Positions 1,312 through 29,416 of a stretch of 41,480 bases of DNA are shown piece by piece (within the stretch, counting starts at the first letter, position 1; each line of letters opens with the position of its first letter). Both the position numbers and the translations under genes were made by a program. The notes beneath the pieces are model-generated. The model had not been told where the DNA came from. It did not search any database and saw nothing but the letters and a program-made list of their open reading frames with translations. The stretch is from Jimgerdemannia flammicorona (taxonomy: Eukaryota). The stretch spans positions 1 through 41,480 of the forward strand of contig RBNJ01000106.1 in the NCBI GenBank assembly GCA_003990765.1, in the 5' to 3' direction.

Positions 1312-1581
1312 GTTTTGCTATTGTGATGTCACCAATCCTAAAAATCTAATTTAGTGCAGTACTACTGGAACTGGAAACATTTCAAACGACGGTTTCTCAT
1401 ACGCGGGGAAAAAAAGAAAAAACTACAGCATGATCAGCTCTATGCACGGACAACTGCCTCCATCGATAGTGTTGCAATTAATAATTTTATGCTTCCATAC
1501 AAATGACCACAACCGATAATGTCTTGATCCATGCGCGGAATTTCGGCGTATCACACCTCCACAAACCTCTTTGGCAACCCC

Positions 1582-5142: not shown

Positions 5143-5214
5143 TCCGGGTTTCTTTTATGGCAAAAGGCCAATGAGACTTTGGCGTGGACTTCCCAAATTC
5201 CTCGTGGCGTAGTC

Positions 5215-5223
5215 TCACGTGAC
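5215..5223. promoter_or_regulatory. E-box (GTCACGTGA; Cbf1/CLEAR-like bHLH site)
   Basis: tcacgtgac ~75 bp upstream of the C12orf4 ATG, in a 165-bp intergenic spacer. Confidence 0.35.
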
Positions 5224-5307
5224 ACACTCCCGCTCTTTGAACTGCTGCCATTTTTTTTATTGCTCGGATTTCCTTGGACCATCTAACAATACACAACACC
5301 AGACCCC

Positions 5308-8300
5308 TCATCTAGTCCCGTCCACGAGTTCCTCCCTGCCTCCAAACATTCCACTAATAAACGCTCGATCTCCCGCACCTGTCTTGGCGCCGTCACTTGA
5401 GACGTCATCAAGTAGACCACATTGCCCAGGGGCCGAGCAAAGACATTGAGATCGGTGGCGCCAAAGGTATCACGGCGGAGGCGGGAGACGATGTACTGCG
5501 GGGCGGTGGAGGCGTAGCCTGTGGCAATAGGGCGGGGAGATCATGAGTGGTGGGAAAGATCAATGGTGTAGGATTTCATGGATAAAACACTAATTGAAGC
5601 GGATGGGCAACATACCACTACCAGTGTCGTCCTTGAGCTCGATCGCGAGCACGGAGCCAATGGGGACGACGCCCTCTACGTTCGGGAGATAAGAAATGTA
5701 ATCCACGGTCTGCGATATCGACGATCATAGGAAACGATGACACGACGATTGAGGGCGATGCATAAGCGGTTATACTAGATTTCCTCGCACGACAACACAT
5801 TTCAAAATTCCAAATATCTTCTACTCAACCGTATCTCCAACCCAAAAACCAACCCCGAACCCCATTCTCACCTTCTTGTCCCACACGCACCATGGTCCCT
5901 CCCAATCGCCATTCTCCCCTTCCGTCTTTACCCCCCAATCCAGCTTGGCGGCCTCCCAGTCCCCGCGCCTGTTCATGCGTTCCATCTCTTGCACCGCCGT
6001 GTTCGCCGCCGAGCATCCCATCGGGTGTGCCGTGTACGAGTGCCCGTGCAGCAACGCATCGGACTTGGACGAAGAGATGAAGGTGTCGAAGATGGATGGG
6101 TTGGTGAGCGTCACGGCTAGAGGAAGTACGCCGCCGGTGAGGAGCTTGGCGTAGGTGGCGATGTCGGGAGTCTAGAGTGATGAAAAGAAAGCAAGAGCAA
6201 CCAGAATGGCCACGTCACTTGAAAACGTAAAACATGATGGACACCCATGAAAGCATATCTCCAAGGGAGTGAGAACTCACCACATCCAAAAGTTCTGCTC
6301 CGTTCCGTTTCCCCAACCTCCACAACCCCGTGAACACCTCGTCAAACACCACGGGTAGCCCTGACCATGTCCCTTCCTTGCGCTGCAGCAATCCCATTCC
6401 GCTCTCCAACGCACCCCCAGACTCCCTCACGACCTCTACCACACTCCGCTGGAACAACGGATCCACGAACACCATCCCTCCGGCCCCCATCAGCACTGGC
6501 TCCATTAATAACGCCCCAAACCTCCGCCCGGCCCTGACTTCCTTCTCCAACCTCGTGCGAATATGTTGCACATATTTCTTCCGCAAAGGATCGGACTGGT
6601 ACCTCCGCGGCGTGAACAGGTCAGCCACCGCGTCATACTCGATGCTCGCACTCTTCTCGCTCGTCATCTCTCCAGGTAACGACACACACACACGCCCCTT
6701 CTTCACCTGCACGATGGGCGGCTCGAACCACGCGCCTTTGGGTTCGTACCACTGCACCTGCCTGTTGAAAACGTTGGCGGAGCACGCGTCCATGGCACCA
6801 ATGGTATCGCCGTGGTATCCGCCGTCGATGCCAATGACGTCCACCCGTCGCGCTGCGTCCCCCTCCCACCCGTATCTCTGCGCGGCGGACCGGAACGCCA
6901 TCTTGAGTGCGACCTCCGTGGCCGTGGATCCGTTGTCGGAGTAGAAAACGCGCGAGGCCCAGGGGCGGCCGATGGTGGAGAGGAGGAGCGAGGCAAGGGA
7001 GATGGCCGGCTCGTGCGCGCACTCGGGGAAGATGACGTGACCGTAGCGACCGGATGCGTGCGCGGCCGAGAGCGTGATTTGAGGGTTCCCGTGGCCAAGA
7101 CCTTGGGTCCACCAACTGGCGCAGGCGTCGAAGTGCTCGTAGGAGACGATGGAGGAGGAGACCGTGGATAGTGGTAATGCCGGTGAGGGTTTTGGCGCGG
7201 AATCGGCGGCGGTGGCGGTTTGGTCTGCAGGCGTGGGGCCGTAGGTGACCATGACGTCGCCGTACGCCGAATCGATAATCGTCACTTCCTTCACCTTTTT
7301 GTGCTGCGTGAACGGCCACCACACTATTGCCTTGGCGTTGGCTTCCATCCCCTCTAGCCTATCAAACCGTTCCTCGTGCTTCTTGTTCAACCTCTCCATC
7401 ACAGGGACCAGGTATTCGTCAACTTCTTTGTAGTACGCGCGCATCCGCTCGGCGTCTCGCTCAGGTTCTATATCCTGCGCTGGCGGCGGAGGGATGACAG
7501 TCACCTCTATTTCCGTGTCCGTGGAGGGCGATAGGGAACGGAAGTGACGGGCGATGAGCTCGTGGTTCGAGAACCTTGGGTTATCGAAGAGCAAAATGGC
7601 GGGAATGTCGTAGCCACGGATGTGCAGAGATTCGCGAGCGGTCAGAGTGGTGGAGATGCCGCCGAGGTTGGAGTCGCCGACGAGAATGGTCGGGAGGCGG
7701 AGGGGGCGGTAGAAATCGGATTGAAGGTTGCCTGACGATGGCAATTGAAGAGCAGGAGATTGTAGATGAAGAACATAGCGCAAGAATTGGGTGTGCCGGA
7801 TGCACATTATGTCAACATACCTGACATAATCGGACTATGAACCCCTAAATTAAATCGAGAGATTAAGATATTTGACTAGGTAAATGGATGCAGGTGGGTT
7901 ATCCAAGCGACAATCACTCATTGCTACAAACGGACCCCCGGCAGTCTCGAGGAACAAAACGCCTCCCGGCGTTTTCTTAACGCTTGCCGCGAATTCGGAG
8001 ATGTGGGTTTTAATCACGTTAAGAACTTCATCATCAGGGGGGGGCTAGGCATCGATGAATCAAATCAGCGAAAGTATGCAAGCTGAGGACAGGGAGTGGA
8101 CTAATACGGTCATGAATTGCTGACGATAATTTTACAGTGGTGGCTGACCTTTTCGGTGGCAATGTGCGGGCTTACTGGATCAGGATACTTGTAGATTGTT
8201 TGAGTGGATACGGTAGGGAAAGAATAATTTCGGACATGTCTATAGGGTAGCAAGAATTATCAGTGCGGTAAGAAAACGCGTTAGAGGATGAAAACAGGTC

Positions 8301-8550
8301 GCCTATTCTTCGCAAGGCTCCGGAGCTATGAGAGGATCAATCGTTGTTTCCACGACTACCTGGCGTCGCTGTCGGTTGGATAGCCCGTCTGCACTGGCTT
8401 CAGGTAAAAGACCTTCTTCTTGTTCTTCTCTGCGACGATGGCAGCAGCGCGGCACAAGCCCGTGGCAAATATTGTCTTACCGACATTTGTGTTTGCGGCG
8501 AATATATGGTAAAGCTGGAGGGCGCGTGTAGGGTGATAGAGCGGTAGCAT
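5308..8550 (-). CDS. bioDA: Bifunctional dethiobiotin synthetase / 7,8-diaminopelargonic acid aminotransferase, multi-exon
   Basis: N-terminal BioD: IFAANTNVGKT P-loop, YLKPVQTG, LETAGG, LVGDSNLGGISTT. C-terminal class-III aminotransferase: WWPFTQH, DACASWWTQGLGH, YSDNGSTATEVALKMA, GYHGDTIGAM, EPVLMGAGGM, FDEVFTG, YAKLLTGG (PLP lysine), HGHSYTAHP, ARPLGNVVY. TGA at 5308-5310. Confidence 0.95.
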
Positions 8551-8574
8551 TAGGGTGAGGTGTCAGAGCGAGTA

Positions 8575-8619
8575 AGCCGCGTAAATTGAAACCGCGTAAA
8601 TTGAAGCCGCGTAAATTGG
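8575..8619. repeat. Three tandem 15-bp units (a[g/a]ccgcgtaaattg[a/g]) just upstream of bioDA
   Basis: agccgcgtaaattga aaccgcgtaaattga agccgcgtaaattgg, 25-70 bp from the ATG. A TGACGTCA palindrome lies nearby at 8651-8658. Confidence 0.85.
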
Positions 8620-10321
8620 TGGCGATCAAGACGCGGTTCTCGTGACGCAGTGACGTCATTGCCCGTTTCAGAGACTATAAAAGGCCGATAATGTGTGGTG
8701 TTTCTGTTTGTTCGGTGTCTGTCCAAAAAAAATAGATGCGTCAATCCTAGTATACCTATAAATTTTTTTAATATTATTTATTTTTAGCGGTGGGAAGCTT
8801 CCCGTGCGTCCTCGTTCCGCAAGAACTCAAATCGGACTCTGCGGAAGCGAAAACGTATGGGCCATTACCTTCGAAACAAGCAACCATGATGCCAGCCAGG
8901 GTCACTCAAAGTACCTGTTGGACAAATTAAAAGTCAAGCTTAAAATTAAGGGTGAGATCGACTTGATCTTTGAATCCCTTCCAACATCAAAGAAGTCAGT
9001 TTGGAGGCTTATGGAATCATACATTCAGGGGGGGTTTTTTTTTTTGAAAATCTAAAATTTCTATGATTTATTATTCTCTGTTTTTAGCATTCTAGGGAAA
9101 GGTGTATGGAATGAAATTGATAGCGAATCGGTATCAATTTTACCTTATTTTCTCATACGATTTGCCTAGGATTTGGAAAGGCAAAACGAGTTTTAAGTTC
9201 AAGATGTGCATATATTATAAATGTCTTACTGTACTCATCATACATATGTATCTCTTTGTCTGAAATCTATTGATAAAGGCGCGTGTCTTGGATACTCTTG
9301 GTAAGTTGTCAGCGATTCCCGAGGATACTTGAAGAGCATGATCGGAAGGACTCCTGTTACCGAGGTCAACTATTATCGGTCCTCATGATGAGACACAGGT
9401 CACTAATCAGGGAAGGAAGTGTGCGTTCTCAATATCCTCGACATCACTCTCACCGCTCTTTGCGATCCAAATGAATCCTATCGTACGACATCTTTGGCGT
9501 CGTATCTGCTCTAGCCTTGGCACATTAACCCTCTCTCTCCGCATATGAAATGCGAGCAAAGTATATACCCGAATCCTTCGATTTTTCAGTCCAAGTAATA
9601 ATATCCCTTATTACGGTCCTGTATACAAAAACATTTATTCATAGTCAAGCCATTTAATACTAATTTTTATTTAAAATATAATAATCCGTATAAACAATTT
9701 GCAGGCAAATTGACTTGCAAACCGTAATAAGGAATATTCTCTTTGAAGCAAACAACAATACATTGTTACATGGGATGAAAAGATTAAAATAAGTACATTT
9801 CACCAAGTTCCGACCGTTTTCGTCCTTGCTCAAGGGATTCATCGGTTGGTTTCCCACCTGTGAGCATAAAAGCAAACCAATAATGGTCCACTTCAAGAGA
9901 GGAAGGCCGAAGTGGTGAATATCAAACCATGAAATCAATCGTAAAAACATGAGACTGACGACACTATCAGCCTTACCAATATCGCCTGCACGATTGCGAA
10001 CTCGTTACCCCCATTTTCATAGGGCATATCCCCAAGGCTTACACGGCGCTTGTGGACAGCGGGTTTGAGTGTTGGAGGGTGCGATAGCTTGAATCAACAA
10101 TTTAAGATGATTGGAAGAAAATGTGTTGTATTATATGTCTGTTGTTTACCATATTGTAAAATTACTAGTTAAGGTGCATATCTAAACAGCCAACCATTAA
10201 ATGAAAAAAAAGATCCGGAGAAGATATTTGTCTCTATATTTTGAAAATTTTCTATATTTCAATCCCTCCCTGCAAATGTGTTCGAATACCAATCACACCT
10301 CAACGTCACAGTGAGCGGCCA

Positions 10322-12914
10322 TCACCCAATTGGCGTGATCTCGTAGAACAGGCATGCATTAGTACTTCCTCCATCCCACCCACGATTGCCCGACGTGGTG
10401 ATCATGTAATGGCAGGTCGGGTCGATAACTGGTTTCGAAGGGTGTTTCATAATCAATGTTAAGGAATCATAGTCGATCTCTTGTAAATCATGCGTGCTAC
10501 TACCTTTGATGTACGATCGTCGCTACTACTACAACTAATTGCAATTAATCTTTGTTTAAAAGGATACGAATTTGTGAGATGATCCCACCATGATGTCCCG
10601 GTAAAATCGAGAACGGGATGACTGACGAGAGTTTCGAGGGTTTCGTCGCCAAACCTTCATCCCCCGCAAAAATCGTGAAACTCGTATCAACTGATGTGTT
10701 CCACATACGGATGTTATCGGTTGACGCGCTGATGTATGTATCACGAGGTCCATTCATTATGGTGTCACTAGACCATCCAAACCGCAGAAATAGATACCGG
10801 GAATCGGACATTCGATGTGGCCTTGCTTACCATATAATGTGTTTGCCGTTCGGCATACTAGTAACGTACGAAACAGGGCCTGAATTGGCCGGCATGCGGA
10901 AGGAACGGATATGCTTCTGCGACGCAAAATCCCATTCGTCCACGGTCCCGTTGCGGCGGCCAGCGTAGATTTTGGTGCCATCTGCGCTCCAACATGCCTG
11001 TGCAATAGGGTGGGTTGGAAAAAATTGAATTTTGGGAACGCAAAGTCGGCAACCTCTCCAAGTCATATAAGCTCGACGCAATATTCAAAAAAGATTATGC
11101 ACGAAGCGCACCGATAAACACCACGGCGGGGTCCGTTCAGGCAATCCGAGCTTTCTAGCGACACCATTAGGTACCCGCCGATCCCATACGAACGCATTTC
11201 CGTCAATACTCGTCGTCAAAATGATGTTGCTCTCCCTCCCGTCATCGAACGCACCAGCCGCTTCGTTCACTGTAGCATTCTTGACATCGCCCATCTCTTC
11301 GTCATCGTCCGCCTTGCTGTTCTCTTTTGCCTCCGCACCCTCACCCTTTTCATTCATATCTTCATCCTTGTCTTCTTTGTCCTTATTGTCATCACGCTGT
11401 GCCGACGTGAATCCACCGTCCTTGCGGTCGACTTCGATGTGGTCATCGTCCTCGTTTTCTCGCCGCGTTGGTAGTGGGAAGGGCGCCACGAATTTAGGCT
11501 GGAATGCGACGGACGATATTTGCGAGTTATGCGTCGTGTACTCGCGCACGATCGAACCAGTATTGAGGTCCCATTCCTTCTTTGGCCAAAATATTGGGTA
11601 TGAGTATGGATATTCACAATACGGAGGCTCGCCAAAAAAAACGAGACTAAGGGCATTATTCAGGACACCTCACCAAAACGGTCTTATCCCACGCCCCACT
11701 GATCATCCCAATTTCGTCTGGCGTGATCCGGAGCACCGAGACAGGGCCACTGTGTTTCTGAAACACATGATGACATCTTCCTTCTTCATGTCGAATGGTG
11801 ACGAGATTTATTGTCCCGTTCTGGTGGTGGGAACAATATGGTTATCATTAATAGATTTGTGTATACAAAGTGAAGTATCCGCGTTAAAAATATGCAGTGA
11901 CATACCTCTAGTCCAGTAACGCCCCACACCGCCTCTGATTGCACGTCAAGGCTATACACGGGGGAGAGTTTGGATTCCGGGGTCGGTTGCCGTTCCTCTT
12001 CAGTGCCGTTCGGCTCAGATTTTGGCTTTGCCTCCTCTGGATAAGCACACCAATGTTGATGAATCACAACGAACTGATCTTGCCCAATAGATGTTACCAG
12101 GGCGACAGCTCCCCATACCTTGTTGCTCTTCATTATCCCAGTACGAAAGCAAGACGCCAGCCTAGCTACCACAACACGTGTCAAAGCTAAAAGTTTAAAC
12201 CGTAGATTCCTCGATGCTGCCCTCGAACTCTCCAACCGCCCTCCACACATCATTAACTACATACCGCACCTTTGTCACAGATTCCACGTGTTGATGCCTC
12301 TGGACCTGGGTGAGCATGGTTTTTCCGTTCATGGACGCAAAGAAGTCCCACTTGCGGATGTAACCGTCTTCTGACCCAGTAAAGACCCAACGTAAGCAAC
12401 GCGTAGTGGCCAGCGAGTAGATGTGGCTAGTGTGAAGGGCCGCAACCTGTGTTGACGAAAATAGCGAACTCAGAATTTCGTAATTATATGATCCAAGAGC
12501 CATGACTTTACGGGGACGGGACATGTATCTGGTAAACCGAGGTTCCACCGAGACATCAATAAATCCAAGCGCAAAAGCAATCGCATACGTAAGGGGCAAC
12601 ATCATATGAGCGACAGGAGCGGGCGCCTGGCTGAAATTCAAGCTCAATGCGCTTGCTGATTGCGCTTGAAACTGGCGGTGGTGGTGCGGGTGTGGCAACG
12701 CGTGCAGTTGTAAGCATTGCCGGCGTTACCTGCGAGGAGGCTAGCGTTTCTATTACAAAGTAATTAGCGGTAGCTTCAAGACAAGAAAAGCACGGGCTTC
12801 CAGAAAGTTTCTTATACCCTCTGTTTCCATGACTTCGTCGATGTCCGAGCCATCCTGGTCTTGTTGAGAGGCGGCGTCGTCGTTCAAATCAATATCTTCT
12901 TCGTCGGACGACAT
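10322..12914 (-). CDS. SPT8: SAGA complex WD40 subunit Spt8, multi-exon
   Basis: Acidic N-terminus (MSSDEEDIDL), YDVAPY..RWVFTGSEDGYIRKWD, SPVYSLDVQSEAVW, VLSGSWDK, internal acidic loop, PPWCLS, YAGRRNGTVDEWD, ASTDNIRMW, PFSILPGHHGGIISQI, and terminal YMITTSGNRGWDGGST. TGA at 10322-10324. Confidence 0.9.
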
Positions 12915-13919
12915 TGTGTGTGCGTGGATTAGGCTGGAACAAAAACCACAAAACCAGAAAAGGTGCAAGTCACATGCAGTCAGTGGCTTGGCGATTGGAT
13001 CCACATACAAACTCATTGGCTACCCAGTATGATCAACTTGCTTAAAACAACGAGTACACTCATCTTATTTCCGTCGTCGACAAGGGAAGCCTCCACTTTT
13101 CGTCGGTTGTGGTTTCTGCACGAACTTGGATATCATACTGTGCTCGCGAATTTCAGGATTGAAATTTTCTGGGTCCAAATTATATATTGGGCGTGCTGCA
13201 ACAAAACCAGACAAAGTGAACATTTGACGTCACTCAATTATTTATTTTTGCCACTGCTTTGCTCGTAACTTTTTAATTATTCAATATTCACCATATAATT
13301 TGATTAGAGTAAGCAAACTGAAAGTATAACCTAATGTTCTCTGTTTTTATGCTTCTTTTAAAGTCTTCACTGATACTGATAGGACTTTGATGTATTGTAA
13401 TTAGGCAGAACATAATTTTTTCAGGGAACATTTCTTTATTTTCATACTATAACTGGATTATCATCAGTAAAATATAAAAATCTGGTGTATTTCTTTCATT
13501 CAGAACCACCTTAAAGAAAAATAATCATTGTTTTTTTTTTTTTTTTACTAAAATAATCTATATATTTGACATAATCTTATAAAAGGAATATATATAAGAA
13601 AAGATAATATTATAATAAACAACATAATCAATGAACTCCAAGAGAGGAATAAATCAAACTGAACAACTAAAAGAAGATCACAAATAAACAATTTGATAAG
13701 TTACTAAATATTCCTCTAATACTTTCTGGTTTAAAGTATTAAATCAAAAATGATTAAAAGAAGGCAAACTCTACCTTTTCTCTAATAACATTCAGATTAT
13801 ACAACCTTCTAACAACACTCACAACACAGTTTTTGGAGAAATGATACTTATAACAGTTCTAGTTTCTTTAAGAGGAAGTAGCTAAATCTGGAAGTTCTAG
13901 TTGACCTAAAGTAGCTCAA

Positions 13920-14322
13920 TGTAATATTTTAGCATAGTTTATTCCTTTTCTTTGTCTTTCTTCAATATTCTATGACTTTCCAGTACTTTCCAAATGCTTA
14001 GAAATCCTGTCTTGGTGCTGAGCATTAACTAGTACTCATTTAGTTAGTCACTGAATGTCCTGGAAATATATAGAACTTTATTTGTTATTATTTATTATCT
14101 TTGCCGAGAACTTTCCTCTTGGCATTTTCCTTTGATTTCTCAGATCCTTCCAGATCCTTCTTTCAGATCTTATATAAATATCCCCTTTGTTCTCATGAAT
14201 AAAGTCTCAGAATATTTTCTCTCAGAAATCCTTCGAGAACACTTGAATCCTTAGTATCTCTTTGAGCTACTTAGGACCATCAGACTTAGTCACTTCCTCA
14301 TTTAGAAACTAGAACCATTACA
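13920..14322 (+). repeat. 5' LTR of element A
   Basis: tgtaatattt...ccattaca, colinear without gaps with 19532-19934; contains TATAAATA and AATAAA. Confidence 0.95.
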
Positions 14323-14324
14323 CT

Positions 14325-14336
14325 TGGTAGCAGCAG
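14325..14336 (+). other. Primer-binding site of element A (initiator tRNA-Met type)
   Basis: tggtagcagcag 2 nt after the LTR. TGGTAGCAG is complementary to the CUGCUACCA 3' end typical of eukaryotic tRNAiMet. Confidence 0.7.
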
Positions 14337-14390
14337 TTAAGTTACACCTAGCCTTATCAAGATACCTCTCAAGATATCAGTCACAACACT

Positions 14391-17300
14391 ATGAAGGACA
14401 ATAAGTGGAACCCTTCATACAGTACCTATGGTCCAGGCAATACCTCATATAATCAGTACAATTAGTAAGAAGAAGAGGAACAGCAAAACCCTACTCAGTC
14501 AAATGGGACCATTGAGAGTCTTTTGCAGACTGCACTAGCTTAGATTGCTCAACTTCAAGAATGTATTGAAAGAAAGGAAAGCAAGGCCCCGCTCATACCT
14601 CTGCACCTCTACCGATATCAATACATCTAACAGTAGTCACTATCAAGCCTTAGAAGCCTGATATCTTTAATGGTCAAAGAGGAGGACTGTCTACCAATGC
14701 CTGGCTTTTCCAATTGGAGCAATATGGAGAACTGACCAATTTGGAAGAAACAACACTAGTCCAATTTGCCACCACACTTCTCTGAGGGAATGCTGCAATC
14801 TAGTGGCAAAATTATATCCAGAATACCAGATTCTCTGGCCAAATCAAGACCTGGGGTGAATTCTCTGATACTATTCAAGACCAATTCAAACCAGTCAATA
14901 GCACTAAGGCCATGTGAGACTATCTGGCAAATGTCAAACAACTCAAGTCTGTGCAGGCATACAATGTACAATTCCTGTCAATCCTACTAGAATTACCACA
15001 TGTCACTGAAGATAAGAAGGTCAACAAGTATATCTGAGGCCTGAAAGGTCAAACCTGAGTTTGTGTTGAACTAGAAGAACCCAAGGACCTAGATATAGTA
15101 ATGAAAATTGCTGATAGGTTTGATGTTATTACCTATGGTCACCGCTTTGAACAGAAGAGACTGCCTTTCAACAACAACAATAACCACAGAAGGGAGGAAC
15201 CCAAAGTCAGAACTGTTGGACCTGCCTCCATGGACCTCAATACCATCGATAAGAACAAGAAAGGCAAGCTTATACCCAAGGAAAAGGAGTACCTCAAGAA
15301 GGCTGGAGCCTGCTTCTTTTGCTGTCAGCCTGGTCACATTGCAACCAAATGTCCCAAGAAAACTGCCAGATCCTGGTCCTGTCTAAAGACACTCAAGGTC
15401 AATCAGTTGAATAAGAAGTTGTACTCAATTTCATATGAGTCAACCCCAAGGCCCAGATCCCTCAAGTACAGTCAGAAGGAGTCATTGGTTTGGACCTTCA
15501 AGCAGTACAACAAGTCACTATTCTGGTATATGAGAGAAGGCTCATTCCAACTGGCCTTTCAGTCGAAATCCCCAAGAAACATTATGCAAGAATTGCACCA
15601 AGATCTGGCCTCAGTTTTAAGCACTCATTGGATATTGGTACTAGAGTCATCGACTCTGACTTCCAAGGTAAAATGCAAGTCCTGCTAGTCAACCACAAGA
15701 ACCAACCATATACCATCAATGAAGGTGACAGAATTGCACAGCTCATTCTAGAGTGAGCTACCCTACCAGTTATCAAAGAAGTCACCAAGCTGTCTTCCAC
15801 TAAGCGAGATCAGAAAGACTTTGGCAGTACTGACAAAGTTGCAAGTATAGCCAAGAATTGAGCCAATTCAATGCTCATCTTCAAAGGTCTAGTCAAGGGA
15901 CAAGAGCTAGATATTCTCATAGATAGTAGAGCTGTTGGGAACTTCATCAACAAGAACCTCATCGACAAGCTCAAGATTCTCACCAAACCAGTCAGCAAGA
16001 ATGGTAGAGTTGTCACTGCAGATGGTACCACCTTACCAATCAACTCAATTGCTGCTAAACTTCCCCTCAAGATCCAGAAGTACTGGGAATGTTTAGATTT
16101 TGAGGTAGCACCACTAGGAGACTATGATCTGATCCTAGGCAAACTCTGGCTTACATGATACAACCCTCAGATTGATTGGACCAAGAATGAAGTCACCTTG
16201 ATCCAGGATAGAGCCAATATTACCATCAAGCCAGACAAGACTCAGACAAGAACCCCAATTGCTACCCTCTCAGCAATTCAGTTCAAGAAGGCTCTCAAGA
16301 AAGCTATCTGTGCCTTTGTGGCACTGATCTGATCAAAGAAAGAAGACAAGAAGCTATCAATTAGTGAAAACATCAAGTTACTGCTAAACAAGTACAAGGA
16401 TGTCTTCCTGGACAAACTACCTGGTCTACCACCTTCAAGAGATCATGATCACGAAATCAAGTTGGTACCTGATGCAGCTATACCTAAGAAGAAAATGTAT
16501 CACATGTCTCTACTCAAAATTGAAGCAGTTAAGAAGGAACTCAATGAACTTATCGAGTGAGGAGCCATTCAACCAAGCAAGTCACCCTTTGGCTCTCCAG
16601 TCCTATTTGTCAAGAAAAAGGATGATGCTCTGCGAATATGCATAGACTATCAAGCACTCAACAAGATTATAGTCAAGAACCACTATCTGCTACTGCTCAT
16701 AGATCAAATCTTTGATGCTCTCAAGAATGCAAAGTACTTCACCAAGATTGATCTCACCTCTGGGTATCACCAAATTCGAATCAAGTCAGAAGACATATCC
16801 AAGACTACCTTCATGATATCCTTTGAACTCTACAAGTTTCTAGTCATGGCCTTTGGTCTCACCAATGTGCCAGTAACCTTTCAAGACCTCATGTAAACTG
16901 TCTTCAAGGATCAGCTCTATATCTTTGTACTTGTGTACATTGATGACATTCTGATCTTCAGCAGCACTGAAGAAGAATATCTCAAGCACATTGAACAAGT
17001 CCTCAAGATCCTCTGTAAGAATAAGCTCTATGCAAAGCTCAAGAAATGTGAATTTTTCAAGGATCAAGTTGAATACCTTGGACACATTGTATCAGCCAAA
17101 GGAATTCAAGTAGACCCAAGGAAAATACAAGCCATTGAACAGTAGCCTATACTAGCAAACCTCACTGAACTCAGGTCCTTCCTTGGTCTAGCTGGATACT
17201 ACTGTCGATTTGTCAAGAACTTCTCTGGCATCACAGAATCTTTAACAAATCTCCTACAAAAGGAACCCCACTCTGACCTCTATGTCCCCTACATCTGGGA

Positions 17301-19230
17301 TGCCTTCTGTCAATAAGCTTTTCAAGAACTCAAGAACCACCTGACCCATGCACCTGTCCTTAGAAACATGGACCCAAACTTGAAGTTCATGGTCACTATA
17401 GATATATCTAACTTTGCCATTGGTGCAGTCATTTCTCAAGATGATGGTCAAAGACACTGACCTATTGCCTTTGAGTCAAGAAAATTGTCCCCAGCAGAAC
17501 AAAAGCTGGCTACTCATGAAAAGGAACTCCTGGCAATCATGCATGCCCTCAAGACCTGGTGACACTATCTAGAAGGAGTTGAGTTTGACATGATTACTGA
17601 TCACAGGTCTCTTCAGTACATCAACACTCAACCAACCCTTTCTCACCAACAAGCCAAGTGGAGTCAACTACTTCAGACCTTTACCCCAAACATCATCTAC
17701 AAGTCTGGCAAAACTCTAGTTATACCAGATGCACTTTCAAGGAGACCTGACCTTGCTGTGATTTTACAAGTTACCATAGCATCTGAATTCCTCAACCAGA
17801 TCAAGAAGGCATATGAACAAGACTCTCTGGTTTTACAAAGGAACACCAAGGAATTCAAGGAAAAGTACACCATCAAGGACAACCTCATGTACTATCAAGA
17901 CAAAGTATATATTCCTGCCAACTCTGAACTATGGTATAAGATTCTTTATGAACATCATGACTCCCCACTAGCTGGTCACCTTGGAACTGAGAAGACCATC
18001 AAGAATACCCAATGAGACTACTACTGGCCAAACATGCTCAAGGAAATCAAGGAGTATGTCCAAAGCTGCGATCTTTGCCAAAGAAACAAGTCAAGCAACC
18101 AAGCACCTGCCAGTCTTCTACAACCCTTGTCAATTCCGACCAAGAAGTTCGAACAAGTCACAATGGACTTCATTGTACAACTCCCATGAATCAAAACAAG
18201 CTATGATGCTATTGTTGTGTTTGTGGACTGTCTCACCAAGATTACAATTGCTGAGCCAACCACAACCAATACCACTACCCCAGAAATTGCAAGAATCTTC
18301 TTCAAGACTGTCTTTCATCATTATGAACTTTCCCAAGTAATTATCAGCGACCATGACCCCAAGTTCACAAGTCACTTCTGGCAAGCACTCTTCAAGACCC
18401 TTGGAATCCAAATTGCTATGTCCACTGCCTTCCATCCTCAAACTGATGAATAGACAGAGTGAATGAACAGAACACTTGAACAAATGCTCAGAAACTATAT
18501 GTCTTATGAGCAAGATGATTGGGACCACTATCTGACCTACACCAAGTTTGCCTACAACAATGCCAACCAATCATCAACTGGTCTTTCCCCATTCCAGCTA
18601 CTTCACAGTCAAAACCCTGAGACCCCTGCGAGCCTAGTCCAATTCCAGCAATCCAGTCACACACAAGTCCCCACAGCTCAGAACCTTATCAACAAAATGG
18701 ATTCCCTTCTCAAGATTGGCACTACAAACCTACAAAAGACTCAGCAACATCAAGCTAAGTATATAGATAAGAAGCAGCGAGATGTCATATATAACATTGG
18801 TGATATGGTTCTACTCAAAGCCAACAACATCAAGACTCAATCTCAAGTTAACCACCAGTTAGCCAAATTCCAGCCCAAGTATCTTGGACCCTTCAAGATC
18901 ACTGAGCAAGTCTCTACCTGGTCTTACTGTCTCAACTTGCCAACAACTATGTGTATACATCCAGTATTCCATGTGTCACAACTCAAGGTCTGGAACCAGT
19001 CACCCCTATACCCTGGCTGAATTCCAACACCATTAGCACCAGTTATAGTTGAAGACCACATCAAGTATGAAGTTGAGAAAATCTTAGACAAATGAGTCTG
19101 ATACCATCACACAGAATACCTAGTCAAGTGGATGGGTTACCCTGAGTATGATGCCACCTGAGAACCTGCCACCAATCTCAAGAACTCCTAAGACCTCATC
19201 CAAGAGTTCGAGCAAAAAGGAACTCATTGA
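14391..19230 (+). pseudogene. gag-pol of element A: Gag with CCHC knuckle, dUTPase, protease, RT, RNase H, integrase, chromodomain; many in-frame stops
   Basis: CFFCCQPGHIATKC; IAPRSGLS / GDRIAQL / DFGST; LIDSRA; YIDD (16936-16947); ITDHRSL; HHDSPLAGHLG...CDLC; HPQTD; GPF; YEVEKILD..YLVKWMGY. Start is approximate. Confidence 0.92.
15440..15830 (+). pseudogene. Trimeric dUTPase domain in element A polyprotein
   Basis: All five motifs are recognisable: GLDL, IAPRSGLS, (G)VIDSDFQG, GDRIAQLI, KRDQKDFGST. The equivalent in element B is at ~33855-34260 (-). Confidence 0.9.
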
Positions 19231-19518
19231 CTGCCCATAAGGTTCTCCCCTTGGATAGTAGATGATCTACTGTACTGATCAATTAGGGCTCTCTAAGGGA
19301 TACAGCATCAGAAGCAAGAGATATAGGAGAACCCTATAAATCCTGTAACTAATGAGATTCAAACCAGTTCTCATCCAATCAAGATGATACTTTGGCCTTC
19401 GCCTTATATAAGGATGGTCAATCCTTACCAATGAGTCAGTATATTTAATTTGAAGTTTCTTTTAGTCTTATTGTTTATCATGTGTAACTTTGAGAATTCA
19501 ACAAGGACATTGATTCTT

Positions 19519-19531
19519 AAGGAGGGGGAGA
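19519..19531 (+). other. Polypurine tract of element A
   Basis: aaggagggggaga abutting the 3' LTR. Confidence 0.85.
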
Positions 19532-19934
19532 TGTAACATTTTAGTATAGTTTATTCCTTTTCTTTGTCTTTCTTCAATATTCTACAACCTTCCAGTACTT
19601 TCTGAATGCTTAGAAATCCTGTCTTAGTGTCAAGCATTAACTAGTACTTATTTAGTTAGTCACTGAATGTCCTGAAAATGTGTAGAACTTTATTTGTCAT
19701 CATTTGTCATCTTTGTCGAGAACTTTCCTCTTGGCATTTTTCTTTGATTTCTCAGATCCTTCTGGATCCTTCTTTCAGATTTTGTATAAATATCCCCTTT
19801 GTTCTTATGAATAAAGTCTCAGAATATTTTCTCTCAGAAATCCTTCAAGAATACTTGAATCCTTAGTATCTCTTTGAGCTACTTAGGACTACCAGACTTA
19901 GTCACTTTCTCATTTAGAAACTAGAACTGTTACA
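19532..19934 (+). repeat. 3' LTR of element A
   Basis: tgtaacattt...ctgttaca, 403 bp. Confidence 0.95.
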
Positions 19935-20720
19935 CTTAAAGAGATACTTAAAGGTTCAAGTATTTTTGAAGGATTTCTGGAAGAAAATATTCTGAGCTTT
20001 ATTCAGGCAGAGAATAAAGATATTTATACATGATCTGAAAGAAAGATCCAGAAGGATCTTGGAAAGAAAGAGAAATGTCAAGAAATAGGTTTTTGGCAAA
20101 GCTGACTAATACTATTCTATAATGTTCCAAAAGGTTCTATGACTAGCTAAGATAAGATACTTAGTACCAAGGAAAGACAAGAATGTTTTAGTAGTGTCTG
20201 GGTGCCAAGAGAAGGTTTCTAAGCAAGTAGAAGGTGGTGGAACATAGTAGAATGTTTAAGAAATAATAAAAAAAAACTAACTAAAAGATGTAAAAATATA
20301 CTAAGACTAAATATAATTGTGAAATTGTTACATCTCTTCCTCTTTAAAAACCAATGTTCTCATTGAGTTCTTAGGTAACATAAGACTAGATATACTTAAC
20401 CAAAATTTCTTAAACTTGTATTAGTGCATTGGTGAGAATTGGCCATCCTTATATGTATAGGGCAGAGGGCCTATTATCAAACTAACTAACTGGGAGAAGT
20501 TTGAACCCAGCTAGTAGCTTCATTTTGGTAGACTTTTTGTTCATTAAATGTTCTGCTAGTTCCAGGGTTCCAAAGTAAACTTTTGATACATAAGGTACTG
20601 GTCTTTGCCATAGGTCATTGACAATCCAAGGAAGTCACTATAGAGATTAGACAATACATTTTGTCTTGAAGTCTTAAACTAGATCTTGAGAGTTCTTGAG
20701 ATTGATCAGTAGTTCCCAAG

Positions 20721-21073: not shown

Positions 21074-21791
21074 TTCCTAGGTAGCATCATATTTAGGGTA
21101 ACCCATCCACTTGACTAGGTATTCAAGATGGTGGTAGTGGATTCATTTGTTAAGAATTTTCTCAGCTTCATACTTGATATGGTCTTTAATAATCATAGGG
21201 GTAGAAGGCTTAGGAATTTGACCAGGGTAGGGCAGTGACTGGTTCCAGGTCTTGAGGTGTAACACATGAAATACTGGGTAACTCTCATGATTTCAGATAG
21301 CTTGAGGTGATAAGAGGATGCAGAGACTTGTTTAGTAATTTTGAAAGGTCTAATATACTTAGGTTGGAACTTGTTTGAAGAGCAGTTGACTTGAGATTGT
21401 ATCTTGAGGTTCTCAGTAGACAGTAGGACTTGGTCTCTAATAGTATAAGTGACATTATAGTATTTCTTATCAGTATACTTGACTTGATACTATTGAGCCT
21501 TCTATAAGTGCACAACCTCCAAGCCACTGAAATCATACATCACTCTCTGAACAAGTTACTGAAATCACATGTGACCTCTAAACAAATCTGAAAATCACCT
21601 ATACAATTATGAAGCTGAGTCAAACCAAAGTCACAGTACACAAAGCTGAGTCAATACGAAGTCACAGAATATAAGATTACACAAACAGAATCTTACCAAT
21701 TAGGACTAAATATATATATACTGAGCACCGAGATATATTGAAACAGAGAACTAAAACAAACAACAACCACAACTTCTGAATATATACAAAC

Positions 21792-22893
21792 ATGACCACT
21801 GAGATCTACAACCACATCCACACTGATATTTGGAATGCCATTATCAACCGAGCCACACCCCCTCTACTCCTCATGAATATCCATAGTCTAATACCTCTCT
21901 ACTTCATGGAAGCTCAATGGAATGCCCTGAATATGCTTAGTGAGACCTACCAAATTGGACAAATCTCAAGCTACTACCAGATTGGCCACCTCCTAGAAGA
22001 TATGGTTGAATACCACTATGATATAAATATTACTCAGATGTCTCAACACCAGAAACTCATTGCCCGTAAACATTGAAAACTCTTCTATGAGTTCAGCACT
22101 GTTATTCTCCATCTCTGAGTTACTACCACCAAAATGGTCACTACTCTGTCCTATGGCCAAATTGACAACATGATACAAGAACTCAACCACAAGTATCTCA
22201 AATATATTCAGACCACAGACAGAACCTTCCCATACCCTGATGACTATATTCTGCAAATGCCTTAAGTCAGATATATGTACAATAAAGAATATCTATAATA
22301 TAATCCAATTTGACAAAGATGAAGCAGAAGACAATGATCTCTCAGATACCAATATGACTGCAAGCTAAGGATCCCTGCTAACTCTGATCACTCTGCTAAT
22401 ACTGCTGATGAACTTACAACAGTTTATAACCATCTATGAGACCTATTGGGACAATGATCACTGGCATGAATACCAACTCACATTTACCCCCGATTACTTC
22501 AACTACAATGAAGAGACAGAAGAACACAACCTGTACCTTCAGATAACTCTTGAGATTGAACCAACCACTCCACCACCCAAGTATGAGTGATATGAACCAT
22601 AGCCACCAGCTTACTACAACCCTATAACTTATAGTGCTGTAACCTACAAAAGGTATGCAGATAGTGAATCCAATGAAAGTGAAGACAATGCACCACTCCT
22701 TCACCCATCAACTCCATACCCAGCATATGAGACAGATGATACTATCCTATGGGACAGTGATGAAGTCCCAATATATTACTACCTTAGTGAATAAGGAGAA
22801 TTAATCTGCAAATAACTCTTCCTAGATGACTACTTCATTGGAGATGATGCAATTGATAGTGATGTTATTGAAGACTACCCAGACAGCATCTAA
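21792..22893 (+). pseudogene. Degenerate acidic, Tyr/Pro-rich ORF of unknown function inside solo LTR copy 1
   Basis: MTTEIYNHIH... continues through isolated stops and one or two frameshifts to ...PPPKYE*YEP*PPAYYN...DDAIDSDVIEDYPDSI*. I recognise no family. Confidence 0.55.
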
Positions 22894-23559
22894 ATCTATA
22901 AATAGCTTAGTAGTTATAGCATAGCTAGATTAGCCTTATACAATATGACTGTAAACTGACTCAGTAGTCAGATGATCTCTTGATATATCAGATCACCCTT
23001 ATACTATATGACTGCATTCTGACTTAACAAGGCACTAAGTGCTACATCCATATCTAGCATAGTCCAGATAACCCCTCACTAGTATAAATACCCCCTCCCC
23101 CAGACCTCAGAATCTCAGACTTGAATAGACTTGAATACATAAGAACACTTCTGAGCACTTTCCCACAATATCCCTTTATATAACTACTCCTAGTATAGTA
23201 ATATCATAAATAGCAAATAAACCTATTTAATAATCCACAAACTACTCTTAAGTAAATCTGCTCCCTATTAGGTCCCACTCCTACCCCCATCATGAAGTTT
23301 CCTAATTGAGTATTGTCTGCAGCAATATACTGATTTAACTAAGCTGGTCTTAGTTTCTTGAACTTCCTGAAATACAGAAAATCTCAAACATCCAGAACTA
23401 GTCTGAAAAAGAAACTTTGGTTGAGACATCAACCCAATCTTGAAATCAATAAGTATAGAGGATATACTCTATATAAAATTGATCTTAATCATAAGAAAAC
23501 AGTCTTCCAGAATATCCAGAACTTCCAGAAAATCATTCCAGAACTATATAACAGTTACC

Positions 23560-26500
23560 TTTTTTTTTTTTTTTTTTTATAGTTACTTGGACTCTGCTAT
23601 TTATTACTCATCTATTAATAAGTTTACAGTATACCCTCCCACTATCTGATCCCCATAGGGGTGCCACTCCCCCCATCTACACAAATAAAGACCACTTTCT
23701 CACCTGCAACTCCAACCCTCCCCCCACTCTGCCTACAGATTTTCTCTACCAAACAATACCTTCGACCCCCCTATAACCCCCAACCAAGCCACCAGCCCAT
23801 CAAGGTGTCTTCCATAAAGCCACACTACCTCAGCAGTCTGATCTCAGAGCCAAGTCTCCTCTTATCCTCAAAAACAAATAACCAGTAACTGGCCAGCCCC
23901 ACCCAAATGGCCAAAGTTCAGCCTAATGTCAGCCATTCCTTCCCCACTCCCCCCTCCAATCTATCCCTTAAATCCTCCCATCACTCCCACACACCAGCTC
24001 CCCTACACACTACCCCCAAATGATCTCCAATGTTTTGCCAAAAGGTACTAAGTACCTCACACTCTCCTAGCCAATGTTCAGGCATCTGCATATATCCCCC
24101 TTCCTGCCTTATATTATAACACTCTTCACATTCGAAGCAACCTCCCTCGATAAGGTGACCTGAGCAGAAGTTGAGCATGACATTCTGCCTCAGCACATAC
24201 TACCAGACCACCCAGTACTTCAGCAGCAGCCACCTCCTCACCTCAGTACTTCAGGCCCAAATGCTATACCAGTTCTACTCCTTACCAATTTCTACTCCTT
24301 GCCAACTGCTAGGCCACAGGTCCTGGCCTGGTCCCCATTGGCATTCGATCCCATTACCAATGTCAAACTCCATTAGGGGAATGCTGCCCAGTAACACTTG
24401 GTCCCATCTCCACATCACTGGGTCTCAAGCTACCTCCTCTTTATTTCCCTGCTACCTAATTCCAATGCAGTGCACTCTCTCTGCCACTCCCCACCAGAAG
24501 CCTTTGAATTGCAATTGTTCAGTATTCTGAAGGCCCACAAGTGATAGGAGATCACCAGTCAAACCCCTCAGAGAGGACCTCATCTCCCAGACTTTCTGCA
24601 GTAGAGGGACCCAACCACCCCCTCTCAACTCCACCACTCTCTTCAGCCACCATGCTCTCAAGCAGTGCAGCCTCTTAGGAAAGTCAACCAGCCCAAGTCC
24701 CCTACTTGCCACCAGTAAGGACAAGACCTCCCAGCTGATCTGACTCCACCTTCCAGCCCAGATCCACCCCTTGGCCAGCTTCATCAATTGCTTCACCACC
24801 CAAGCTGGGAAGTCCAAATGATAAGCCAGATACCACAACTTTGGCAGTCAATAGATGTTCAGAATCGAAATGCATCCTACCAGAGACAATTGGCGGCCCC
24901 CCCAGCTCTGTAGAGTCTCCTTCCAGATGTCAACCTGCTGCTCCCACCAAAGTCTGGGCAGAACCGATCCATATACTGACAGATAAATACCCAAGTACCA
25001 TACTGCCTCACCAGCAGGGACAATGGTACCAATAATCTCCCCTCCCACCAGACCATTGCCTAACACTATTGTTTCACACTTATGCCAATTAAGCCTAGTC
25101 CTGGAGTTCACCTCATACCACTCCACTGTTTCCTTGAGCTTCTCAACATCCACAATTGATCCCAGGCTGACCACTATGTCATCTGTAAATGCTCCTACTT
25201 TCCACCCAATGCCAAAGATAGAGAGCCCCACTACCTTCTGCCTGATTCTGTCCATGAAGGGCTCCAGAGAAAGAGCATACAAAATGAGAGACAGTGGGTC
25301 CCCCTGGGGCACCCCCCTACCCAGGAGAAATACTACCTCTCTGTGTCCATTACACATGAGTGCAGCCCTACTCTCTTCTAGTAGGCTTACCATGGCTATT
25401 CTGAACTGGTGTGGGACCCCAATCCTATCCAATACTTTCACCAGCCAGACCCATCGCACTCAGTCATAAGCCTTCTCCTGGTCCAGAAAGATCAGACACC
25501 CATCCAGTCCACTGGCTCATGCCCCTTCAATAACTCCATGAACCCATGCTGTGCCATCTCTGATGAGTTGGCCTCCCACAAAGCCCCTCTACTCATCACC
25601 CAAGACTTGCTGGGCCACCTTTTGCAATCTTGTGACCACTACCTTAGTAACCAACTTTCTGTCCATATTCAGTAGCATAATTGGCCTCCAGTTCTTTCAG
25701 TCCTCATGCCTTCCTTTGTTCTTATAAAGCAACATCACCAGCCCCAGATCCTGTTCTCCCACCCATCTCCCCATCTGTATAATCCAATTACACAGTGCTG
25801 TCATCTCTTCCAGTACTCCTGGGACTCCCACCATCTTTTTCCAGAAGTCCCAGGGCAGACCATCCTCCCTAGGTACCATACCCAAGGTTGTTGTAGCAAG
25901 AATCTGGCAGATCTCCTCCTCTTGCACCAGCAGTACTAAGTCACCCAGCCTCTCTGCTCATGTAGGGTACCAATCCTCCAACACTCTGTCAATGTCCTCA
26001 GTATCTGCCCCACCCTCCTTCTTACTCCACAATCCACTCCAATGCTCCTTTAATGATCCAAGAATGTCTTGTACACTATGCACCAATATACCATTAGCAT
26101 TAAGCACCCCCTCCCACCTTTGTTACACCCTTCTCACCTAAAGGGCTCTTGTGAGAAACTTTGAGAGCTGCTCCCCTTCCTCCAACCCCTGCCAATGAAG
26201 CCATGTGGACCCTTGCCTCGTTCTCATTCTGCAGCACCTGTTATAGTTCAACCACCTCTATTCTTACCCTTATCAATCTCCAGTCCTCCTCTCCCTCCAA
26301 CATCACCAGTCTCACCCAGTCCTCCAAGAGCCTAGACAGTCTACTAGAAGCCCACTGCATCTACTGCCTCCTCTGTTTCCCAGCCTCCTTACCAGCCTCA
26401 CTCCAGAAGGCCCTGGCCATCTCCTTCATCCTCATCTACCAAGTACCAACTGGGGCATCTTCCTGTCTCCAGTACTCCACTTGTAGTTAAATGTCTTCAG

Positions 26501-29416
26501 CCTACTCATCCCATCAGATCTTATCATCTAGTAAGGAGGAATTGAGACACTAATGTCCAGGCCCATCCCTACTCCCCCCAAAACACCCCTGCCCTAAAAG
26601 CCCCCAATGATCCGACCAAGGATACCATTCCACCTCCAGTGACTTCCAAACATCCAAGCCCCAGCAGCTGGCTGTCAGAATCCAATCAATCCTTGTCCCC
26701 AGGCCTCTAGTCCAGTGTGTGTACACCCTCCTATCCCCCCAACATTCTCTACTTACATCCACCAGAGCACTCAGTCTTTCCACTTCCTCCCATACTGCCA
26801 GTCCTCCACTCCAACCCTCAGCTCCTCATCCTCCATCAGTTCTATCCCTCAATATGTCTTGGACCATATTGATGTCCCCACTGAGCATATCCACCCCAAC
26901 CTCCACAAGAATTCCACTCTCCTATAGGCCCTTCACCCAATTCACATACTCTCCCTATACTGCAGGGCAGTAGCAGGAGCCCACTATGACTGGCTTCCAA
27001 CCTGTACATATCCACTCTCCCCAGACCAATCTATCCCCCCAGCTCTACATATCTCTTATCTCCTCTCTGCCTTTCTACACCAGAATCCCAACCTTGCCCT
27101 TCCAGACTGCCTCATCTCCCCACTCCTTCATCCATTCCAGTCTATCCAAGTCATCCTCACACCTGACATCCTGTAAGAGGAAGAGATCAGCCTCCAATCC
27201 CTTCAGTCAGGTAAAAATGTTCTTATATCGATAAGTGCCCTATAACCTATTCATGTTCAAAGAAAAAATATTGGTTGTACTATTCATAATGAAAAAATGG
27301 TGTGTTATCAAGCTTTTTCTACTGCTTCATGTTCATCTCCTCCTGTGCCAAATCCAGATTATATTCCATAGTCACCGCCTCCTCTTCAGTCCTCTGAGCC
27401 TCCAGTCCAGCCAACAGCTCATTTATCTCCCCATCTGCCTTCTCCTTGAATTCCTCTCAGTACTCCAGGCAGGCTTCCTGTCAGAGCTGCAGTCCATGAC
27501 ACTTGGTCCAGCAGTATTCAGCCCTCTCTCCTGTGACTCCTGCCATCTCTGCCTCCCACTCCTTATCTATCTCATAGCCCTCCTCCTCCAGATACACTGC
27601 AAGAATTTCTGCCTTCAATGCCATCACCACCCCCTCCCTCTGCAGGATCCTCACCCAATGCTCATCACTCATTACCCTCAAATCCACCTCTCCCAGCTCC
27701 TCAGCCACCAGGTTGTTCATCATTCTGCATATCCAAAGTAGGTTCCCCACCTCCTTTCCTCCAGAGGTCACCAGCCTCCCACCATCCAGTATTGTGATAT
27801 CAGCCCCAGCACTCGCAGCCTCATCCCACTCCTCTGGAATGTCCACCAGTTCCTCCTCACCAACTACCACCACTTGTCCCCCTTTTGCCATCTCCAGAAC
27901 TCCAAATTGCACTCTCTGGGCCTCCCGCATTAGCACATCCTCCACCACCCTGCTTTGGGAAGCTGGGCCCTGCCTGATAAGAGGAGTAGGGGTAGAGGAG
28001 TCCTCCCATATCTTATCCCAAACCTCTAGCATACCATCTGCATATGGGTCCTTGCCAGTTGCCTCTCTGTTCTTGCCAGTCCCCTTCCCAGCACTCCCAC
28101 TTCCCTTGTCTGCCCAAACACTCACTTTGGCCCCCCCCATGTCCACCATCCTGCTCATATCCTTCTGAGGCCCACCCTTCATTTTTGCCAGCAGTTCCCT
28201 CTATCTCTTATGTCACTGATCTCATTTCCACTGCTCCTTGCTCACTTGAATCTGCTTCCCATCTACCACCTCCAAGTGCATCGCCTCCTTAAAGGCCCTC
28301 CAAGTCTTTGCCTGCTATTCCACCACACCACTCAACTCTTCTAGCACTTCCAATAGGTCCTCTTCCTCCTTCTCACTCCTCTTCACCCTTGTCACCTTAC
28401 ACACAATTGCCCCCCAGACCATACCAGAAGGCCAGTCCCTTGCCTTCCTGGTGGCCTCCTTCTCTGCTAGCCGAATCCTTACATTTATATCTCCAGTCCT
28501 AAGCGAGATCCCCTCCCAGACTCTGAATCCAATATCTACTATCTCTCTATACTCTGCCATGACCTCCTCAACTCTCTTTCTTGTCTCCATCGCTGTCACT
28601 GTAGGCATCCCTTTTACCAGCAGTTGGACCACTCTGGGATCCCATTTCAGGCATTGAGCCATCAGAACACACACTTCCCCAACTATCAATCCAACCTTCA
28701 ATGCCTCCTCCAAAGGCTCAGCCTCCTCAAAGCCCACCTCCACTCCCTCCAGTCCCTTCAAAAACTTTACAGATGCTGCTCCAGCCACCTGCTTAGCAAT
28801 CAGCTTCAGTACTATTTTCACCATCACTGCTAAGCCCCAGAAGCACAGTATCACTACAAATGCCAAGATCAATTTCTTGAGTAACAGCACTACCACCAGG
28901 CCCATCACACTATCTGCTAAATCTCCTTGTCTTCCGAGCTCCAGTTGCTCAGCTGTACCATCTACAGTCACATCTGGATTTTTTTTTCAGATTCACAGTC
29001 CTATCTCCATCAGCTATCACACCCCCCTCAGCCACTATACCTCCAGCCCCACTGCTCTCTCCACTAAGGGCTACTCCCCCATGTACTGTCACTCTCTCCA
29101 TTTCCTTGCCTTTTCTCAACCAACCCTCCAGCCCTGATATCTGCCTTCTCCCCTTCACCATCTCAGCAAAGCTCACTCTCTCAGATCCCTGTCCTCCACT
29201 ACTGCCTCCTTCCCTTCTGTACCCACCTGCTAGCAGCCCCCTCATACCTTCCCCCAGGCCCAGGCCTCTCCCCATGTACTGCCAGTCAAATGCACTCAGG
29301 CCACCCTACCCAGTATATACCTTAGATTACCTGTCAGTTGCCATATTGCTAGTCTCTTTTCTCCAAAAATGATGTTGTAGTTGCTTCCCAAAAGTTGTAT
29401 AACCTGAGAGGTACTG
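23560..29416 (-). mobile_element. LINE copy 2 (L1/Tx1-like), full length ~5.86 kb, degenerate
   Basis: Poly(A) tail (T-run 23560-23578); 14-bp TSD atataacagttacc (23546-23559) / acataatagttacc (29417-29430). ORF1 ~29344-27320 (SFAEMVKG, RRM-like region). ORF2 ~27287-23700 with APE (SLNMN, LFLLQD, GDIN, RIDWIL, SDH), RT (LDQEKAYD, GVPQGDPLS, AFTDD, YLGI) and a C-terminal CxxC...HxxxxC. Confidence 0.93.

Follow-up and report, generated by a model that had tools for sequence, protein, structure and literature searches.

The transposons that fill the 28-kb block beyond position ~13350 of Jimgerdemannia flammicorona contig RBNJ01000106.1 (assembly GCA_003990765.1) have been eroded since their insertion by a cytosine-specific C-to-T process. 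The whole 41,480-bp contig was analyzed and is referred to as the window. The transposons are the Ty3/gypsy element A, which carries two long terminal repeats (LTRs), the gypsy element C, the solo LTRs E1 and E2, and B and D, which resemble long interspersed nuclear elements (LINEs). The process acts on duplex DNA, affects the two strands alike and does not pass the gene border. Its rate is set by the 3' base, with G far above A, followed by C and then T, and the 5' base makes no difference. J. flammicorona is a mycorrhizal fungus that belongs to Endogonales (Mucoromycotina) and therefore lies outside Dikarya, in agreement with the first-pass annotation, which had supposed a non-Dikarya fungus from the DNA sequence. 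The pattern probably arose because cytosine methylation targeted to the transposons, dense at CpG and sparser at other cytosines, was followed by deamination.

The process is seen most clearly in the LTRs of element A. This element lies on the plus strand and consists of a 5' LTR (13920–14322), an interior (14323–19531) and a 3' LTR (19532–19934), as delimited by LTR comparison, translation and Pfam. Each LTR is 403 bp long and reads TGTAA...TTACA. The two LTRs aligned without gaps and differed in 33 of the 403 columns. All 33 differences were transitions, and neither transversions nor indels occurred, in agreement with the hand count of the first-pass annotation (about 33 sites, all C/T or G/A). 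The probability of this outcome is 1.8e-6 if two-thirds of substitutions are transitions, and 6e-4 if 80% are. When the C or G allele was taken as ancestral at each transition, a polarity that is independently supported only at 40 listed places and in the comparison of E1 with E2, the differences fell at 11 CpG, 14 CpA/TpG, 6 CpC and 2 CpT sites. The mixture of reciprocal CpG decay with changes at CpA, CC and CT that had been described earlier was thus recovered. The 11 CpG differences comprised five reciprocal TG/CA pairs (10 sites) and one CG/CA difference. The 21 C/T and 12 G/A differences stand against 84 C and 49 G, i.e., they are proportional to base content, which indicates that both strands were struck alike. 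The target-site duplication (TSD) of A bears the same type of change, as its left copy CTCAA (13915–13919) and its right copy CTTAA (19935–19939) differ by one C/T substitution at CpA.

The coding region of A has decayed in the same manner. Its pol (15439–19017) encodes dUTPase-PR-RT-RNaseH-IN-SH3, with an SH3 domain of the Tf2 type, all in one frame according to Pfam, and the Pfam profile positions run on across the stop codons. The 1193 codons include 14 in-frame stops (10 TGA, 2 TAA and 2 TAG), and there are no frameshifts over 3.6 kb. A TGA stop is the product of CGA or TGG.

A second clean LTR pair belongs to element C, which spans 13849–35715 on the minus strand and is bounded by the TSD ATACT/ATACT. 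Its 5' LTR lies at 35275–35715. Its 3' LTR is interrupted by A and was identified by BLAST to the 5' LTR; the outer part is located at 13849–13914 and the inner part at 19935–20332, the first 5 bases of which are the right TSD copy of A. The pair differed at 37 of 441 aligned bases, with 35 transitions, 2 transversions and 2 gap events. The matching TSDs at A and C argue that each is a single insertion. In some contigs of the public runs X1 and X2, position 13914 was joined to 19936/19939 (13893–13914 + 19935–19939), which corresponds to the LTR of C without A. This LTR thus occurs in uninterrupted form elsewhere, in support of A as the later insertion.

The first-pass annotation had also noted that the TG end of the LTRs had become TA three times. 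The sequence TATAA is indeed present at 13849, 21503 and 35275, compared to TGTAA in A and in E2 (30896). Positions 13849 and 35275, however, belong to the two LTRs of C and may reflect either one change before insertion or two parallel ones; on the strand of C itself, this end change is a terminal CA to TA. The TG-to-TA change at 21503, the start of E1, is polarized by E2.

The sequence context of the changes was determined from the two clean LTR pairs (70 differences) and one solo-LTR pair, E1/E2 (91 differences), all from this one 41-kb window. The solo LTRs are independent insertions and not an intra-element pair, and their shared 3' 740 bp differed by 81 transitions and 10 transversions. 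In the pooled data, 50 of 64 available CpG sites differed (0.78; 21/24 in A and C), compared to 51 of 163 CpA sites (0.31; 24/80), 27 of 124 CpC sites (0.22; 13/57) and 19 of 245 CpT sites (0.08; 10/139). CpG exceeded CpA (p=1.5e-10), and both CpA (p=1e-9) and CpC (p=2e-4) exceeded CpT. The excess of transitions was not limited to CpG, because 97 of the 147 context-assigned transitions lay outside it, and non-CpG transitions outnumbered transversions by 47:2 in the LTR pairs of A and C and by 97:12 in the pooled set. Therefore, the earlier proposal that the C-to-T changes reach beyond CpG stands, with the amendment that CpG is the fastest target and is near saturation, and that TGA dominates among the pol stops. 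Even CpT cytosines changed far more often than any transversion occurred, as the LTRs of A and C show only 2 transversions over 844 aligned positions. The opposite change, T to C, appears to be rare: in these T-rich LTRs, which offer mostly TpT, frequent T>C changes would have swollen the CpT class, and this class was the emptiest.

The effect of the 5' base was small, with 0.15–0.25 of cytosines differing in the pooled data. At CpG, the counts were 15/21 for TCG, 14/18 for ACG, 15/17 for CCG and 6/8 for GCG. No TpC, WRC, dipyrimidine, UV-like or APOBEC-like 5' motif was found in the pooled contexts, and ultraviolet (UV) damage fits the data poorly. There was no excess at CHG (13/107) relative to CHH (82/420), where H is any base other than G, and the distance to the nearest CpG had no effect.

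The direction of change is supported by comparisons that do not depend on the assumed ancestral allele. CpGs are present in E2 where E1 shows TpG or CpA. In the 14-bp target duplication created by the insertion of B into E1 (23546–23559 and 29417–29430), two sites distinguish the copies, both by a transition; relative to the uninterrupted E2, CG has become CA in one copy and TA in the other. At the 40 best-supported of ~1096 differing places, where A stands against nearly every other copy, A carries T or A at 29 and C or G at 9 (at least 3 former CpGs), with 2 transversions. A metagenome scan for further copies of the A family yielded one close relative among 6 loci (L001, 83% amino acid identity), and a scan of viral contigs yielded none. 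A three-way polarization of A, L001 and C over 880 columns gave 29 C>T/G>A against 25 T>C/A>G changes for A, and 72 against 15 for C. This comparison, which did not yield a pure C>T bias on the branch of A, was set aside, as it mixes subfamily divergence before insertion with decay after insertion. Contigs of four public runs, of which two seemingly derive from the same organism and two are soil metagenomes that cover the transposon part only, were compared to positions 1000–20400 of the window and gave transition/transversion counts of 437/67, 231/13, 533/56 and 619/78. The transition bias is thus family-wide and not peculiar to this contig.

The loss of CpG was confined to the transposons. 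In the gene region (1–13330), which served as the internal control, 890 CpGs were observed and 839 expected (1.06). The corresponding values were 24/241 for A, 19/288 for B (23561–29430), 2/213 for D, 5/64.7 for E1 (21503–23560), and 6/42, 0/45 and 1/107 for the three parts of C. The observed/expected ratio was thus 0–0.12 across the transposons other than E2, which retained 34 of 60.7 expected CpGs (0.56). Along the window, CpG density was 36–93 per kb up to 13000, 12 in 13001–14000 and 0–6 from 14001 onward, with the exception of E2, and the last CpG on the gene side is located at 13264. In element interiors, CpA and TpG were observed at 1.1–1.3 times expectation. CpG loss, an excess of TpG and CpA, confinement to transposons and reciprocal TG/CA differences are expected from the decay of 5-methylcytosine, and all of them were observed. 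The genes were spared and every transposon was affected; the window is without unique non-genic DNA or a duplicated gene, so that targeting of repeats and targeting of transposons or heterochromatin are inseparable here.

These observations are best accommodated by a two-step mechanism. Transposons would first acquire 5-methylcytosine, which would be dense and maintained at CpG and present at a lower level at other cytosines. The methylated cytosines would then deaminate, either spontaneously or with the help of an enzyme. The outcome would resemble repeat-induced point mutation (RIP), with stop codons, no indels and loss of G+C, and neither a homology trigger nor meiosis would be necessary. 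The available parts of two reports on Phycomyces, which also belongs to Mucoromycotina, describe a DNMT1 and a Dim-2 homologue and CG methylation above non-CG methylation (PMC7862722, PMC13297926), which indicates that Mucoromycotina can possess the needed enzymes. The first-pass annotation had offered an active mutator and methylation followed by deamination side by side. A C-to-T process acting after insertion was borne out, and the data do not separate the two causes, with deamination favored.

Several points weigh against methylation and deamination as the cause. Methylation, the enzymes and the timing are what we infer from sequence decay alone. The non-CpG share of transitions (97/147) is large if non-CG methylation is as low as in Phycomyces, for which the accessible portion of the report gives 2.2% at CG, 0.3% at CHG and 0.5% at CHH (PMC7862722). 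The assignment of contexts depends on the assumption of an ancestral C or G, with the limited independent polarity described above. The spectra were drawn from transposon copies only. Finally, A is nested in C and is younger, and yet its LTRs are as diverged as those of its host (33/403 compared to 37/441). With divergences this similar, burst-like events account for the data no worse than steady decay does.

The last point leads to the alternative that the elements were inactivated by a RIP-like defense, i.e., an enzymatic C-to-T mutator that is triggered by repeats or homology, acts in bursts (e.g., before meiosis) with the preference CpG > CpA > CpC > CpT, and evolved or was retained in Endogonales. 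We consider this doubtful, although much of the evidence is shared with it. Such a mutator would leave adjacent genes intact and alter all repeated elements almost exclusively by C:G>T:A, without indels, as is seen here. It would also account for the raised C>T changes at CpT compared to the two transversions, and for the equal divergence of the younger A and the older C. Six changes also lie within 29 bp of one LTR copy of A (14068–14096), and the available part of a study of the entomophthoralean Zoophthora gives index-based hints of RIP beyond Dikarya, with caveats (PMC11105155). In terms of the Neurospora type of RIP, the exclusive C:G>T:A change in repeats was present (33/0 in A, 35/2 in C, polarity 29:9), whereas a preference for CpA together with a positive composite RIP index was absent. 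The composite index was negative in 13 of 16 segments, and only three short LTR segments reached +0.01, +0.13 and +0.27; the classical RIP indices were thus mostly unfavorable. In element interiors, the ratio (CpA+TpG)/(ApC+GpT) was 1.3–1.6. The dominant target was CpG and not CpA, as is also reflected in the 10 TGA codons among the 14 stops. The strand-coordinated clusters that had been suggested as a further check did not appear either: runs tests on the non-CpG changes by strand or by copy found no clustering in A, C and E (P=0.06–1.0), with the reservation that repeated rounds of mutation could have wiped out such runs. Moreover, E2 is a member of a repeated family and retains more than half of its expected CpGs, and a kingdom-wide screen of 2025 places RIP-like enrichment in ascomycetes only, according to the part of that report available (PMC12543289). 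A repeat-directed Endogonales mutator that strikes cytosines in every context (3' base G >> A > C > T), arose or was retained independently of the ascomycete RID system and operates alongside CpG methylation is likewise doubtful.

Neutral ageing of the elements under an extreme genome-wide bias toward transitions or C>T, with only the CpG part specific to transposons, is improbable. In most organisms, spontaneous mutation produces C>T more often than any other change, and the spectra given here come from transposon copies, which leaves some room for this explanation. However, the non-CpG ratios of transitions to transversions (47:2 and 97:12) are too high for it, as the probability of at least 97 transitions among 109 changes is 9e-8 if two-thirds are transitions and 0.009 if 80% are. 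The strong dependence on the 3' neighbor and the near absence of T>C would also be unexpected, as would be the lack of any indel in 403 bp at 8% divergence and of any frameshift in the 3.6-kb pol.

Editing of the cDNA by a deaminase before integration, gene conversion, or misassembly of LTRs from different copies is very improbable: dUTPase, which A encodes, is often linked to the avoidance of uracil in reverse transcription, and many copies are available for conversion or mis-joining, but both LTRs carry C>T as well as G>A changes without the strand asymmetry or 5' motif of APOBEC/AID-like editing, the LINE-like elements, solo LTRs and TSDs bear the same changes, the matching TSDs favor A and C as single insertions, and conversion or mis-assembly would only import family variation that is itself transition-only.

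Dikarya, and among them mainly ascomycetes, are the fungi to which RIP-like hypermutation is ascribed. The canonical target of RIP is CpA, as stated in the available parts of two reports (PMC4352252, PMC2621366). The window resembles RID-dependent RIP of Neurospora crassa and other Pezizomycotina in that C:G>T:A changes alone occur in repeats, without indels, with premature stops and loss of G+C, and with genes spared. It differs in that CpG (50/64) is ahead of CpA (51/163) and CpT is least struck, in the mostly negative composite index, in the absence of strand runs and in the Mucoromycotina lineage. Tuber melanosporum, which is also ectomycorrhizal, offers another parallel. In the part of the work available, C>T changes in its transposon-rich genome are found mainly at CpG, with a second signature at CpA (Amselem et al. 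2015, PMC4352252). The two cases differ in that Tuber belongs to the ascomycetes and in that CpC is also raised here. For Tuber, the same portion of that source gives genes of the RID/Masc1-like and Dim-2 classes (PMC4352252). The TpCpG hypermutation of Pucciniomycotina, as far as the accessible text describes it, is similar as a CpG-centered C>T change in transposons outside Ascomycota (Horns et al. 2012, PMC3318451); the present case differs from that description by having no preference for a 5' T and two-thirds of its transitions outside CpG.

For Zymoseptoria tritici, the available part of the report describes mitotic, Dim2-dependent and CpA-biased C>T changes that are restricted to methylated transposons and do not need meiosis (Moller et al. 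2021, PMC8016269). The enrichment of C>T at CpA over CpT inside transposons, a trait of DIM-2-type mutation, was also observed here, and the Dim2 process could plausibly serve as a model for the non-CpG part of the changes. In Zymoseptoria, CpG is methylated and not highly mutated according to that part of the report (PMC8016269), whereas CpG in the window is near saturation. The decay of 5-methylcytosine in animals, plants and Basidiomycota shares with the window the CpG loss restricted to transposons, the excess of TpG and CpA and the reciprocal TG/CA differences. The 47:2 ratio outside CpG and the gradient CpA > CpC > CpT set the present case apart from plain CpG decay.

The part of the window past the gene region is a nest of transposons, in which D is outermost and is split by C, and A, E1 and E2 lie inside C. 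In A, a stretch resembling a primer-binding site (PBS), TGGTAGCAGCAG, is located at 14325–14336, a gag-like frame shows a CCHC motif by eye in the translation and no Pfam match, and a chromodomain-like tail was likewise read by eye. The dUTPase domain (15439–15753, Pfam E=1.9e-29) sits between gag and protease. A PBS-like stretch of C is located just below 35275. It reads CTTGGTAGTAGTGGT (35257–35274, reverse complement), and that of A reads CTTGGTAGCAGCAGT (14323–14340). Judged from its sequence, the primer-binding site of C appears to have taken C>T hits itself.

The solo LTR E1 (21503–23559, with its last 21 bp at 29431–29451) is bounded by the TSD CCTTC, starts with TATAAG where E2 has TGTAAG, and is nearly free of CpG. 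It is interrupted by the LINE-like element B (23560–29416, minus strand), which was recognized by RVT_1 (E=1e-11) and weakly by Exo_endo_phos (E=0.04); the poly(A) of B is visible as a T-run from 23560. The solo LTR E2 (30896–32392, TSD TCTCA) is the least decayed element: either it was inserted last, or the process spares it. Positions 22843–23559 and 31653–32371 were considered as the LTRs of one element, which was rejected, as they are the 3' parts of the independent solo LTRs E1 and E2. The LINE-like element D (35716–41480 and at least ~70 bp left of 13849, plus strand) is of the same family as B (72% identity) and was split by the insertion of C. A supposed 5' LTR of D was no more similar to E than shuffled controls. 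The coding strand of the B/D family contains 32–36% G and 11–13% C (GC skew ~0.4–0.5), with A and T nearly equal. The differences between B and D are roughly symmetric per base, so that this strand skew is apparently a property of the family itself and does not stem from the C>T changes.

The gene region (1–13330, minus strand) contains spliced genes for a TPR protein, an Fy-3-like protein, a DAPA aminotransferase and others, as identified by Pfam. The contigs of runs X1 and X2, which are labelled RNA runs only by guess, omit intron-like stretches of 82–149 bp in this region. In 13 of the 15 listed, these stretches have CT..AC ends, which would correspond to GT..AG introns when read from the minus strand. 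An open frame of 530 amino acids (6215–7807, minus strand) was 100% identical to the J. flammicorona protein P0001, and its next named relatives are from Umbelopsis, Mucorales and Mortierellaceae (~50–53% identity). P0001 (718 amino acids) contains the aminotransferase domain only, and most of its relatives of 750–810 amino acids add a dethiobiotin-synthase domain (PF13500). The 5' end of P0001 may thus be incomplete, be it in the gene model or in the gene as such.

Taken as a whole, the analysis points to C>T hypermutation of transposons that is either linked to methylation or RIP-like, a known phenomenon, in a group without an earlier description of it. In the literature search, neither RIP nor cytosine methylation turned up as the subject of a study on Endogonales; Chang et al. 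2019 (the genome paper), Bewick et al. 2019 and the supplements were outside the scope of this search. The hints of RIP beyond Dikarya in the literature found are based on composition indices only, in the available part of the source (PMC11105155). The LTR pairs bounded by TSDs provide direct, alignment-based evidence of nearly pure C-to-T inactivation of transposons in an Endogonales fungus, and the non-CpG component is the part that deserves follow-up. Index-based scans for RIP would overlook the process. Dating by LTR divergence would be strongly inflated, as the first-pass annotation had warned, and would saturate in the J. flammicorona genome, for which reviews, in their accessible part, give 240 Mb and >77% repeats (PMC10386755). 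The sharp contrast in CpG between genes and transposons predicts that methylation is restricted to transposons in this fungus, and E2, which retains CpG, would serve as a natural probe of its methylome.

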